Below are positions 16,592 to 20,921 of a stretch of DNA of 21,101 nucleotides, one piece after another. A program made the translations under genes and the position numbers. Origin of the DNA: a virus; the UHGV virus genome UHGV-1793583; one strand, given 5' to 3'. The notes beneath the pieces were generated by a model. The model saw only the letters and a program-made list of their open reading frames with translations, was not told the origin of the DNA and searched no databases. Position 1 is the first letter of the stretch; each line of letters starts with the position of its first letter.

Positions 16592-16626
16592 GTTATATGT
16601 CGATGATGCTTTTTTGATAGTGCTCA

Positions 16627-17043
16627 TTATCTGATCCTTACATTTTCAATTCTGCCGTTACCTAAATCAACGATAGCATGATTTTTTACACCCGCGCCGC
16701 CTTCGTTAGATATTCTTTCAGCAAATGCGGCTTTATCAGCGTTGCACTCGTTGGCTATTCTGTTTCTTATTTCATTGTTACCTTCGAATACGACACCTAC
16801 AGCAGCCTCCATCACAAGCCCATAATTAAACCATCTTGCATAAACTGGTTTACCTTCGAAATGCTTGTCAATTGCTTTATAAAAAACCTTGATGGCTTCG
16901 GGTTCCTTCTTGAAAATTTTATGGTATTCGGCAACGTTATTTGCTACTTCATCGCAGTTTATATTTATTACATCGTTTGCATTTGCGTTGAATGCCAAAC
17001 CAACCATTACCGCCATCATTGCCGCTCTAATTAACCGTTTCAT
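16627..17043 (-). CDS. secreted moron protein with Sec-type signal peptide (138 aa)
   Basis: Reverse strand inside forward tail operon; N-terminus MKRLIRAAMMAVMVGLAFNANA, no lipobox; GGGTGAG RBS; own promoter and terminator. Confidence 0.65.
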   Translation of the reverse strand: MKRLIRAAMMAVMVGLAFNANANDVININCDEVANNVAEYHKIFKKEPEAIKVFYKAIDKHFEGKPVYARWFNYGLVMEAAVGVVFEGNNEIRNRIANECNADKAAFAERISNEGGAGVKNHAIVDLGNGRIENVRIR

Positions 17044-17055
17044 AACTCACCCAGC

Positions 17056-17142
17056 TTAGTTTTTGTTTTTAAGTGCTTTCAGCATTTCCTCGATGAAGTC
17101 TGCATAACGCTCATGCTCGTTTGGTCGGCAGTAGTTTTTCAT
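17056..17142 (-). CDS. small upstream ORF (28 aa, MKNYCRPNEHERYADFIEEMLKALKNKN), not in track
   Basis: AAGAGGA 7 nt upstream of ATG; stop 13 nt before the secreted-protein ATG. Confidence 0.3.
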   Translation of the reverse strand: MKNYCRPNEHERYADFIEEMLKALKNKN

Positions 17143-17218
17143 TTTCTTATCCTCTTTTGCTTCCTCCGGTTCATCCGGCCTTCTGAATCCATTCACTCAA
17201 TCCCTTTCCTTTGACTTA

Positions 17219-17247
17219 CTTATACAAAATGTATTCGTTGAAGTGAA
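17219..17247 (-). promoter_or_regulatory. sigma70-like promoter for moron 1 (-35 TTCACT, 17-bp spacer, -10 TATAAG)
   Basis: -35 is reverse complement of 17242-17247, -10 of 17219-17224; -35 overlaps the GTGAAGCCATTTTGTA motif. Confidence 0.4.
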
Positions 17248-17299
17248 GCCATTTTGTATAGAATAGAGATCTAGATCACAATTTTCATGAGGTTAAATC

Positions 17300-19639
17300 A
17301 TGGCTACCAGTTTAGGTACAATTTATTACGAAGTCGATGCAAAAACTGGTCAGCTTCTTGTCGCTCAACGACAGGCAGACCAGGCATTTGACAGTATAGA
17401 GCGCGGCGCGAAACGCGCTGACCGCCAGGTAAACACGTTTAAGACTTCAATCAAAGCACTGTCCAGGGTTATCCATTTGCTACTTGCTGCGGAGGCGGTG
17501 CGCCAGTTTATTGACATGGCGGAGCAAGCAAAAATGCTTCGCGTAAAAATCAAATTGCTTACAGGTGATGCAGAGGTCGCGGGACGTGTTTTCGATGGCC
17601 TGAAAGAAATATCAAAAGAAACCGGGCAAAGCCTGAAGGATACTGGCGAACTATGGCAGGGCCTGGCTATCTCACTGAATAACACGTCAGCTACGGATGG
17701 TCAATTGCTTAACCTGGTTGGCACGATTCAAAAGATGGGGGCGTTAGGCGGCGCGTCAGCGGAACAGATGTCTAATTCTATGCGCCAGTTCCGCCAGTCT
17801 ATAGACGGTGGCGTTCTTCGTGCCGAAGAGTTTAACAGTCTGCTTGAAAACACGCCGACCATCGTACAGACAATGGCCCGCCATATGGGGTTGTCAATGG
17901 GTCAGTTCCGCGCCGAAATGCTGGACGGCAAGATCACGGCTGAAAGGATGGTTAACGCGATCCAGGCAGCTACACAGGAAACAAACGAGAAGTTTGCACA
18001 GTTGCCTCGCACATCCGGCAAGGCTATCAATGAGCTTAAAGTAGAGGTGATGGGGCTTGTTGAGCAACTGGATGATCTTTTCGGTGTATCAGATGGCGTT
18101 GTGTCAGCTATCGACCTAATAACTGGCGGCGTTGAGGGATTAGGTAAAGGTGCAAAATTCGCCGCAACCTGTTTCAATACACTCAAAACCGCTGGCAGCG
18201 AGTTTATAGACATGTTTGACGACGTTGCTGTTAAAGCTGGTGAGGTGGCGGAAGAGATTATTAGGATGGTAACGCCAATAAAAGCGCTAATGGATGGCCA
18301 CAAATGGATGAAGGAGATCATTGATAAACGCAAGGAAGAGCTAAACAGCAATAACGAGAAGAAATTCGGCCCCACCATTGGCAAATTCATGACGTTTAAG
18401 AATGACATCGAAAAAGCAACTGCCGCTTATGATGAGTTCATGCAGAAACAGGGTGAGGCTAACGATGGCAAGATCACCGGATTCGATCAGCCAGTTGGTA
18501 AGCCGAAAAAACCGAAAAAACAAAAGAAATCTGAAGCTGATCGGCTTGGTGATGAAGGTGTAAAAGTGTCCGACCAGTACAACAAGGAAGCCGCCGCTAA
18601 GCGTAAAGCACTGGAGAACGGCAAGGCCATTGATGCTGCATTCGCCAAGGGAAAAATAACCCTCCTTGAGTACAAGGCCGCGCAGAAAGGGATAGGCAAG
18701 GAACTGAAGGACGAATTGGCCCAAATCCCGGTGGAAGAATTGCAAGACAAATGGGCGCACATAGTAAGCCCAATGGATCAACTTAAGGGCGAAATTGACC
18801 CCATCAAACAGGTGCAGAATGAGTGGGCCGTCAAAAAACAAATGCTGATAGACCTGGGCGCTACAGAAGCGCAACAGAAACAGGCGCTTTTGGAATATGA
18901 GCAACAGATACGAGATCTGAAGTGGGAACAATGGCAGGCGCAAAGCGACACGAATAGCCTAATCGGTGCTTGTGTTAGTGGCCTAAAAGGTGGCATGGGT
19001 AATGCTCTCACCGGCCTGTTAAACGGTACTCAATCATTAAGCGAGGTTTTCGCCAACCTGGGAAGCAGTATCCTCAATACCGTTGGCAACAAACTATCAG
19101 AGATTGCCGCTAACTGGATAGCAGATCAATTGATGATGGAAACGCAAAGCAAGGCTACCCAGGCAAGTACAACTGCTGGCGCTGTGGCGGCGCAAGGCCA
19201 GATTGCGGCGGCGGCGGCCCCGGCTGCGGCTGCAACGGCTGCGTCAACTGGTGGTAGCTGGGCTGCGGCTGGTGCTGCGGCACTTTCTGCGATCATTTCG
19301 CTGGCAACATCAATTTTTGGCGGCGGGCGTTATAATGGTGGTTCTGTTAATGGTGGAAGTCTGTATCGAGTAGGGGAACACGGAATACCTGAGCTATTCC
19401 AGACGAGCAACGGGCGTCAGTATATGATTCCAGGCGAGAATGGTAGGGTAATTCCTGGTCGCGATCTCTTCAGTGGTGGCGGCATCAATATGCCTGTTAA
19501 CATCACCGTTCAGACCACAAACGGGTTTAGCGACGATGATAGTCGCAGGCTTGAACAGACAATGGAACGCGTAGCAATGAAAATGATGGCAAGGGAATCA
19601 CAACGCCCTGGAGGAATGTTGCAACCTCGCCGCAAATAA
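17300..19639 (+). CDS. tail tape measure protein (779 aa)
   Basis: Largest ORF; helical charged N-terminal and central regions; Gly/Ala-rich hydrophobic C-terminal segment; follows chaperone. Confidence 0.9.
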   Translation: MATSLGTIYYEVDAKTGQLLVAQRQADQAFDSIERGAKRADRQVNTFKTSIKALSRVIHLLLAAEAVRQFIDMAEQAKMLRVKIKLLTGDAEVAGRVFDGLKEISKETGQSLKDTGELWQGLAISLNNTSATDGQLLNLVGTIQKMGALGGASAEQMSNSMRQFRQSIDGGVLRAEEFNSLLENTPTIVQTMARHMGLSMGQFRAEMLDGKITAERMVNAIQAATQETNEKFAQLPRTSGKAINELKVEVMGLVEQLDDLFGVSDGVVSAIDLITGGVEGLGKGAKFAATCFNTLKTAGSEFIDMFDDVAVKAGEVAEEIIRMVTPIKALMDGHKWMKEIIDKRKEELNSNNEKKFGPTIGKFMTFKNDIEKATAAYDEFMQKQGEANDGKITGFDQPVGKPKKPKKQKKSEADRLGDEGVKVSDQYNKEAAAKRKALENGKAIDAAFAKGKITLLEYKAAQKGIGKELKDELAQIPVEELQDKWAHIVSPMDQLKGEIDPIKQVQNEWAVKKQMLIDLGATEAQQKQALLEYEQQIRDLKWEQWQAQSDTNSLIGACVSGLKGGMGNALTGLLNGTQSLSEVFANLGSSILNTVGNKLSEIAANWIADQLMMETQSKATQASTTAGAVAAQGQIAAAAAPAAAATAASTGGSWAAAGAAALSAIISLATSIFGGGRYNGGSVNGGSLYRVGEHGIPELFQTSNGRQYMIPGENGRVIPGRDLFSGGGINMPVNITVQTTNGFSDDDSRRLEQTMERVAMKMMARESQRPGGMLQPRRK

Positions 19640-19643
19640 ACTA

Positions 19644-19673
19644 AACCCCGGTACAATGCCGGGGTTATCTTTT
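19644..19673. terminator. bidirectional intrinsic terminator (AACCCCGG-loop-CCGGGGTT)
   Basis: 8-bp stem, 7-nt loop; T-rich on plus side (ATCTTTT) and on minus side (TAGTTTATTT); between TMP stop and minus-strand cassette. Confidence 0.55.
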
Positions 19674-19968
19674 AGTTATTCTCAAAACTTGTATATCCTC
19701 TCTCAATTTTCCCTCCATGTACACTTCTGGCAAATACCGCGTCAGTATACCTAAAAAAATGGACACGTATATGTATCCCCTTTACTATCCATATATTTTA
19801 GCACCCATGCCATGCGTTTTACGTTGCTTTTATTTGCCGGGTTTTTCATTTTATTTTCCTCCGCAAATCACAATCTTCCGTTTCTTGCTGTATAGCTGCG
19901 AGCAAACATCACCTGCCAGATGTTCCAGATCTCCATCCAGGTGAATTTATCGTCATCCATATTTCACC

Positions 19969-20223
19969 TCATTTATGTGCCCCTTTTACGCCACAGTGGC
20001 GGTTGTATTCCAGATGGTCAATAATTAACCACATCTTTAGATCTTCGCTGAATAACCGCCAATCGGGGTTGATGTCAAATTTATAACCGTAGCCATCGCG
20101 TAATTTTTTGGGGTTGGCCTCTTTTTTCAGGAAAGCGTTTAATAAGGCCTTGCCCTTTTTGATGATCCGGTCCTGTGCGTTTTTCTGTGCTTTCAGGTTT
20201 TTACCAATCGCCACCAATTTCAT
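19969..20223 (-). CDS. small basic protein of unknown function (84 aa)
   Basis: Reverse-strand ORF; ATG at 20223 preferred (GGGGTGGG RBS); Lys-rich; second gene of two-gene minus cassette. Confidence 0.5.
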   Translation of the reverse strand: MKLVAIGKNLKAQKNAQDRIIKKGKALLNAFLKKEANPKKLRDGYGYKFDINPDWRLFSEDLKMWLIIDHLEYNRHCGVKGAHK

Positions 20224-20241
20224 AACCCACCCCACAATCCA

Positions 20242-20397
20242 TTAGCTGACCACTTTCAGGAAGAAATCACGGTATTCATCTTCTTTTGCATTCATCATGA
20301 ATTGACCGTATTTGAATGCGTCATCGAAGCCTTTTACAATCGCCACTTCCACCTGTTCGAATGCGTTGTTCAGCATTACCACTACATAGCGTTTCAT
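20242..20397 (-). CDS. small acidic protein of unknown function (51 aa, MKRYVVVMLNNAFEQVEVAIVKGFDDAFKYGQFMMNAKEDEYRDFFLKVVS)
   Basis: ATG at 20397 with AGGAGGGG RBS; first gene of minus cassette; 18-nt gap to downstream basic-protein gene. Confidence 0.45.
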   Translation of the reverse strand: MKRYVVVMLNNAFEQVEVAIVKGFDDAFKYGQFMMNAKEDEYRDFFLKVVS

Positions 20398-20439
20398 GAT
20401 GCCCCTCCTTTGTTGGTACTGCTTTCTCTTCTTGCTTCC

Positions 20440-20468
20440 TATATACATCTTGTTACGTCCTGTGTGAA
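20440..20468 (-). promoter_or_regulatory. sigma70-like promoter for moron 2 (-35 TTCACA, 17-bp spacer, -10 TATATA)
   Basis: -35 is reverse complement of 20463-20468, -10 of 20440-20445; -35 overlaps the GTGAAGCCATTTTGTA motif. Confidence 0.45.
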
Positions 20469-20486
20469 GCCATTTTGTAAACTGGG

Positions 20487-20492
20487 TATAAT
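20487..20492 (+). promoter_or_regulatory. consensus -10 hexamer TATAAT without clear -35, possible plus-strand promoter for the gpM-like gene
   Basis: Perfect TATAAT 8 nt after the 16-bp motif; nearest -35 candidate TGTGAA is poor. Confidence 0.3.
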
Positions 20493-20511
20493 TCTTGTGA
20501 CGAAGTTCTAA

Positions 20512-20541
20512 TTTTTCGCGTAGAAGCGCGTAAAGATGTAT
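20512..20541. promoter_or_regulatory. conserved 30-nt leader element TTTTTCGCGTAGAAGCGCGTAAAGATGTAT (copy B)
   Basis: 27 of 30 identical to 8410-8439; 27 nt upstream of the gpM-like start. Confidence 0.45.
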
Positions 20542-20567
20542 GCAATATGTAACTTATAGGGGGAATC

Positions 20568-20921
20568 ATGCTTGAAGTTTTCAAATGGACGCCACAAAGA
20601 AGCTACAGCGTGACCAGGGAACCAAATGTGTCAGTCATTAAACTTGGTGATGGATATGAACAGCGCCAGGCGAAAGGGATTAACACATTACTTGATAAAT
20701 ACACCCTGGTTTTTAAAGGCAGTAGCGCAGGATGCGGTGATGGTGGAAACGTGGCGATCCAGGCAGAAGCATTCTTGAGGGCGCGCGGCGCTGTCGAGGC
20801 TTTTTACTGGTCGCCGTCTATGGATGGCGTGCAAAGGCTTTTTGTTTGCCGTAGCTGGAGTATGACTAAGGACGGGCCTGTGTACACGCTAAACGCAACG
20901 TTTGAACAAGTTGTTGGCTAA
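20568..20921 (+). CDS. minor tail protein, lambda gpM-like (117 aa)
   Basis: Follows tape measure; motifs KLGDGYEQRQAKGINT, FYWSPS and C-terminal ATFEQVVG match my recollection of lambda gpM (FGDGYSQRA..., FLWTPP, ...EFEQVVN); AGGGGGAA RBS. Confidence 0.8.
   Translation: MLEVFKWTPQRSYSVTREPNVSVIKLGDGYEQRQAKGINTLLDKYTLVFKGSSAGCGDGGNVAIQAEAFLRARGAVEAFYWSPSMDGVQRLFVCRSWSMTKDGPVYTLNATFEQVVG

Follow-up and report, generated by a model that had tools for sequence, protein, structure and literature searches.

The minus-strand operon between the tape measure gene (17300-19639, Pfam TMP_3) and the gpM-like gene (20568-20921, Pfam Phage_min_tail) of the virus genome UHGV-1793583 is tentatively read as a moron operon made of a toxin-like effector and its dispensable, lineage-specific partner. 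The probability of this reading is put at roughly 0.45. The window, that is, the whole stretch of 21,101 nucleotides (nt) that was analysed, comes from a phage of the mEp021/mEpimmI group, whose members are temperate, non-lambdoid phages of Escherichia coli. The effector candidate is the second gene, T84, which encodes a basic protein of 84 amino acids (aa). Its partner is the first gene, A51, which encodes an acidic protein of 51 aa.

A51 (20242..20397, minus strand; MKRYVVV...KVVS) is preceded by the ribosome-binding site (RBS) GGAGG at 20408-20404, 6 nt before the ATG. Its product has an isoelectric point (pI) of 5.1 and a net charge of -1.5. Alignment of homologues places the start at the 51-aa position, not at the 68-aa extension often chosen by gene callers. 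T84 (19969..20223, minus strand; pI 9.9, net charge +9.7) starts 18 nt past the A51 stop codon. The open reading frames (ORFs) of the window give the operon four genes: A51, T84, a 30-aa ORF and a frameshifted fourth ORF. An original prediction, made from the sequence alone, had described the minus-strand unit with up to three ORFs. All of these exist; the fourth (19849..19751) was missed.

The comparison set consists of 49 related loci, taken partly from GenBank phages and partly from IMG/VR. The ratio of non-synonymous to synonymous substitution rates (dN/dS) was calculated by the Nei-Gojobori method (NG86) with 24-34 distinct alleles from these loci. It is 0.05 for A51, 0.08 for T84, 0.04 for the 30-aa ORF and 0.12 for the shared part of the fourth ORF; the comparison gene, gpM, gives 0.08. 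All four ORFs are under strong purifying selection and are therefore genuine protein-coding genes, and the three predicted earlier (0.04-0.08) are conserved in related phages beyond chance.

T84 is a member of the Pfam family PF24732 (ParE_like toxin domain). The match has an E-value of 7e-12 and 45.6 bits against a gathering cut-off of 24.4, and covers T84 residues 19-75 and profile positions 2-67 of 67. All 18 aligned relatives of T84 match the same family, as do all distant relatives tested. T84 is also found in phrog_1525. The assignment already stands in public annotation: identical and near-identical E. coli prophage proteins bear the RefSeq (PGAP) and UniRef name "ParE family toxin-like protein". 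The earlier statement that neither protein could be assigned to a known family is thus wrong for T84; it holds for A51. PF24732 is narrow and uncharacterised. An exhaustive HMMER pass over 1.84 billion representatives gave nine matches, of which the distant ones are all PF24732, and no paper citing the accession PF24732 was found in a literature search.

In an alignment of 18 sequences, which reaches down to 24% identity, K40, L41, R56 and H70 are invariant and K23 and N74 are nearly invariant. With four more distant members only R56 and H70 are invariant; K40, L41 and N74 are nearly invariant. T84 and the members from jumbo phages are about 18 residues longer at the N-terminus, outside the Pfam domain. 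The AlphaFold2 model of T84 is poor (predicted local distance difference test score 67), with a strand-helix-strand-strand-strand-helix order compatible with RelE/ParE. PDB sequence and profile searches with T84 gave no match, and no solved PF24732 structure was found by sequence. Comparison of the family profile by hhalign with E. coli YafQ (single sequence and 6-sequence profile), RelE, YoeB and HigB was not significant (E 0.09-0.24); in this non-significant register R56 falls on the strand of YoeB Arg65, and DHLEYN stands opposite HigB THKEYD. The sole positive external support for a RelE/ParE relationship comes from depositor annotations, namely the note "HHpred 4MMG_B 97.7%, YafQ-like ribonuclease toxin" on the homologue of Klebsiella phage Muenster and the label "HigB-like" on that of Serratia phage OS31.

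A RelE/ParE fold of T84 is probable, as yet unconfirmed. T84 resembles the RelE, HigB, YoeB and YafQ toxins in size, basic charge, predicted order of strands and helices, invariant Arg on the middle strand and C-terminal His-x-x-Tyr motif, the last two in the non-significant register given above. The residues R56 and H70 (invariant) and N74 (nearly invariant) look more like those of ribonuclease (RNase)-type members than of ParE proper, and from the conserved Arg/His/Tyr-Asn pattern T84 would be of the RNase type rather than the gyrase type. It differs from the RelE, HigB, YoeB and YafQ systems in the lack of a cognate RelB, HigA, YefM or DinJ-type antitoxin and in being tolerated without its upstream partner.

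A51 is found in phrog_29810 (unknown function); no relative of it was found in Pfam, NCBIfam, PADLOC or the PDB. Its detectable homologues are all at least 76% identical and all lie within the mEp021/mEpimmI group. The protein is predicted to be a compact beta-beta-alpha-beta miniprotein; the prediction is confident but generic. Ribbon-helix-helix, helix-turn-helix, AbrB and Phd domains are absent from A51, and a disordered tail able to wrap a toxin is not predicted.

T84 is present in 49 of the 49 related loci and A51-T84 adjacency is kept in 47 of them; A51 always stands beside T84 (44 of 44 loci). The reverse does not hold. A51 is precisely deleted in two relatives (L013 and L015) and in the cultured enterotoxigenic strain E. 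coli UMNK88; in all three, T84 is intact with every conserved residue and is placed on the RBS of A51. A51 and T84 are therefore not an obligatory toxin-antitoxin (TA) couple. An antidote-dependent toxin should not survive the loss of A51, unless the operon is silent in lysogens. A single A51 protein allele (21 loci) is paired with eight T84 alleles, down to 61% mutual identity, the non-synonymous rate of A51 is about four times slower than that of T84, and the joint divergence that TA pairs usually show is not seen between the two.

In the reading favoured here, the operon occupies a slot prone to recombination. Its transcription would start in the conserved intergenic region that separates A51 from the divergent gpM-like gene, run antisense to the late tail operon and end at a terminator shared with the tape measure gene. 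Being antisense to the late tail transcript, the operon would be expressed mainly in lysogens or in early infection. T84 would be the anchor gene and may encode a RelE/HigB-type translation-targeting effector, probably a ribosome-dependent mRNA endonuclease, with R56, H70 and the His70-x-x-Tyr73-Asn74 motif at the putative positions of the catalytic residues of YoeB, HigB and RelE. A51 would be a co-translated, lineage-specific binder or modulator of T84: antitoxin-like in layout, dispensable and without a DNA-binding domain. Through its effect on host translation the operon would be of use to the lysogen or to the infecting phage, for example in the exclusion of other phages or in host takeover, as with RegB of phage T4.

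Several points weigh against this reading. The genomes without A51 hold only two distinct T84 alleles, 98% identical, and therefore probably go back to a single deletion or to two; if the cassette is silent in lysogens, nothing could be learned from them. The strict co-occurrence of A51 with T84 and their tight spacing are equally expected of a true antitoxin. The -10 element of the cassette promoter is weak.

The first alternative is a classical type II TA system, in which the labile antitoxin A51 would neutralise the toxin T84 and either stabilise the prophage or, on A51 decay, cause abortive infection. It is doubtful, and has much of the layout on its side: a small acidic gene and a small basic gene, co-oriented, 18 nt apart behind one strong RBS, with a single upstream promoter region and a shared terminator. 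The exact two-gene unit, A51 and T84 alone and then the terminator, occurs in 10 relatives. The T84 family is named as a toxin, A51 never occurs without T84, truncated T84 copies are found in some E. coli genomes, and the different small acidic protein that overlaps the PF24732 gene in phi467-like prophages would fit mix-and-match antitoxins. Set against this are the three genomes, UMNK88 included, with intact T84 on the RBS of the deleted A51, the pairing of one A51 allele with eight T84 alleles, and A51 itself, a predicted compact globule with no recognisable antitoxin or DNA-binding domain and no disordered toxin-binding region. In PADLOC-DB 2.0 A51 has no match and T84 matches only PDC-M02A at E 0.051, and PF24732 genes have no comparable partner in jumbo phages or beside ParB-like or DUF2857 genes. 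Of the TA-like arrangement proposed in the original prediction, the order of genes and the toxin-named family of T84 stand; the behaviour of an obligatory antitoxin-toxin pair does not, given T84 without A51, no co-variation, no antitoxin domain in A51 and no common partner of PF24732 genes.

PF24732 was found only in phages, prophages and contexts like those of integrative conjugative elements, and its genes have no common neighbour across distant genomes. In the jumbo phages phAPEC6, K64-1 and Muenster (in the last inside the terminal repeat) the gene lies in same-strand arrays of small genes. It overlaps a ParB-like gene in OS31-like phages and Serratia prophages, and follows a DUF2857 gene in Xenorhabdus. 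Xenorhabdus genomes (L143-L150) have several PF24732 homologues each, placed directly after a DUF2857 gene. DUF2857 is presumably typical of integrative conjugative elements; if so, PF24732 is not confined to phages. In phi467-like prophages, the hosts of which include Citrobacter, Enterobacter and Atlantibacter, the PF24732 gene follows or overlaps a gene for an unannotated 70-80-aa acidic protein (L123-L135; L058 1296-1505), which is absent in L130 and L131. This arrangement parallels that of A51 and T84; the acidic protein has no homology to A51 detectable by hhalign (E 0.51).

PF24732 may form a branch of the RelE/ParE fold that is specific to phages and mobile elements and consists of free-standing effectors on host translation rather than addiction toxins, with unrelated, dispensable small acidic partners recruited in each lineage (A51; the 70-80-aa protein of phi467-like prophages). 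This wider proposal is speculative and rather unlikely. If true, the lysogen operon would be an undescribed translation-targeting module of exclusion or host control with a new type of globular inhibitor.

It is improbable that A51, T84 and the downstream ORFs are independent accessory genes on one promoter, with T84 a non-toxic derivative of a toxin fold, such as an RNA- or ribosome-binding regulator or an anti-defence protein. The variable cargo downstream of T84, the different evolutionary rates and independent recombination of A51 and T84, the tolerance of T84 alone and the place of PF24732 members among early small genes of large phages would all agree with it. The occurrence of A51 only beside T84 does not; the Arg/His/Tyr-Asn pattern, kept across members of 18-30% identity, is active-site-like rather than decayed, and neither protein is linked to a known anti-defence family.

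The third gene of the operon is the tryptophan-rich 30-aa ORF (19868..19960, minus strand; MDDDKFTWMEIWNIW...; whole product MDDDKFTWMEIWNIWQVMFARSYTARNGRL). Its GAGGTGA RBS overlaps the T84 stop codon. It had been predicted at 19960-19865: the ORF and the RBS exist as described, and the end lies 3 nt off, at 19868. The ORF is found in 31 of the 49 relatives and is absent from 18, and 27 of 29 full-length copies are intact. By its dN/dS it is as constrained as any nearby gene. The product matches no known family in Pfam and phrog searches. That this peptide is the partner of T84, in a higBA-like toxin-first order with A51 redundant or additional, is very unlikely: translational coupling to T84, strong purifying selection, retention in the A51-less L013 and L015 and the presence of A51 in every locus without the peptide speak for it, but it is missing from 18 loci, belongs to no known family, is, at 30 aa and rich in tryptophan, not known to resemble any described antitoxin, and its complementarity with A51 rests on one or two deletion events.

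The status of the cassette as an accessory moron operon in a conserved slot is supported. In lambda-type relatives H and M (the tape measure gene and the gpM homologue) are adjacent or overlapping, as had been assumed; here the cassette lies between them, and the cargo of the slot varies. In the closest outgroups, Salmonella phage ES18 and Erwinia phage 49 (gpM 67% and 60% identical to that of the window, respectively), the same slot holds different reverse-strand genes with their own terminator. These are ES18 gp22, annotated as "possible moron", and MZUP3_170 of Erwinia phage 49. They share with the cassette the position, the opposite orientation, the own terminator and the neighbouring gpM homologue; their proteins differ in sequence from those of the cassette, with no formal comparison to A51 or T84 run. 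The G + C content of the cassette is about 0.42; that of the tail genes on either side is 0.48-0.57. Both skews are inverted in the cassette. Moron status is supported because of the different genes in the slot and the low G + C content.

Cassette region identity is 90-94% to mEp010, mEp044, mEp554, mEp013, mEp515 and mEp021 and 82% to MagusPhagus. The cassette was found in 35 of 5426 complete E. coli genomes (about 0.6%), always in the chromosome. It is old within the mEp group, not a recent insertion. The acquired moron of the original prediction is accordingly borne out by its slot, opposite orientation and low G + C content; it is not peculiar to this phage, being present in every group member examined. 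Downstream of T84 the cargo in the mEp group consists of the 30-aa and 55-aa ORFs, an extra 60-aa ORF, an HNH endonuclease, zinc-ribbon proteins, or nothing. The HNH endonuclease gene lies directly after T84, with an overlap of about 13 nt at the T84 3' end (L004 1932-2438, mEp515; L120 844-1326, E. coli E21845/O/A). Homing-type genes thus also land in this slot.

The fourth cassette gene (19672..19849, minus strand) is disrupted in the window. As written, the ORF is 19849..19751, 32 aa. It stops after 32 codons because the T run at 19759-19753 has seven residues, not the six of the relatives matched by script, which is a +1 frameshift. Deletion of one T gives a 58-aa ORF that reaches the terminator, like the 55-aa mEp010_101. 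The extra T is either an assembly error or a sign of a fresh pseudogene. The intact product is a basic protein of 55-58 aa without a known family.

The candidate sigma-70 promoter of the cassette (20440..20468, minus strand) consists of -35 TTCACA (20468-20463), a 17-nt spacer and -10 TATATA (20445-20440). Both hexamers are conserved across an alignment of 40 distinct relatives, and the promoter is presumed to be active. It was predicted earlier and is present; it went uncalled in a consensus scan of the window, since its -10 does not end in the consensus T. The intergenic region of 170 bp that separates the divergent A51 and gpM-like genes (20398..20567) is strongly conserved in the 40 distinct relatives. 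A perfect TATAAT on the plus strand (20487-20492), without a good -35, faces the gpM-like gene and is invariant in the same relatives. The gpM 5' leader also has an almost invariant CGCGTA-GAAG-CGCGTA repeat or short hairpin (20517-20532). The two elements together point to an internal promoter or operator that serves the distal tail genes and may be regulated. At the other end the predicted bidirectional terminator was recovered as an intrinsic terminator (19644..19666) common to the tape measure gene on the plus strand and the cassette on the minus strand. The hairpin is rich in G + C and was called on both strands, with 6 G-C pairs each, a stem of 10 pairs (plus) or 8 pairs (minus) and T runs on both sides. 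The same terminator is annotated in mEp010, mEp021 and mEp515.

Two further regions were noted. Relatives have a second reverse-strand cassette after the gpM-like gene and a 62-aa ORF (L002 3393-4422, mEp021; L001 3271-4194), just beyond the right end of the window. Its first ORF again encodes an acidic protein of 51 aa, and a KilAC/antirepressor-like protein is among its products; by eye only, the small proteins of this cassette have a beta-beta-alpha-beta pattern like that of A51. In the window, positions 16600-17300, directly upstream of the tape measure gene, have a low G + C content (0.39) and an inverted skew. This region holds overlapping ORFs of 138 aa (minus strand) and 118 aa (plus strand), neither of which matches a PHROG. 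It could be a further reverse-strand accessory gene where the tail chaperone genes are expected.

Among known systems, paaR2-paaA2-parE2 of E. coli O157 prophages combines a ParE-type toxin with a small acidic antitoxin not known to have a DNA-binding domain, which neutralises it. PaaA2 is mostly disordered and helical, and regulation comes from a third gene. A51, in contrast, is predicted to be a compact beta-beta-alpha-beta globule, and the cassette has no regulator gene. RegB of phage T4 is a nuclease of the RelE/YoeB fold without a known antitoxin, which reprogrammes translation during infection (PMC3014915). Its action without an antitoxin matches the solo PF24732 genes of large phages. 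T84 has no sequence similarity to RegB; RegB is an early gene of a strictly lytic phage, whereas T84 lies in a prophage tail-region moron, usually with an upstream partner.

The describers of the mEpimmI coliphage group report that it is prevalent in the gut (PMC11893012). The paper that describes these phages discusses neither the cassette as a unit nor A51 nor its natural deletions. The deletions are a ready-made genetic test of whether a prophage protein of toxin fold needs an antidote, and the case bears on the trust to be placed in gene order, small acidic then small basic, for calling TA systems in phage genomes. If T84 is inert, the cassette would be one more moron of unknown function. 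If it is active, about 0.6% of complete E. coli genomes and the mEpimmI group carry an unstudied translation-targeting protein within the tail gene cluster, and T84 would provide the first function for a Pfam family that reaches into jumbo phages.
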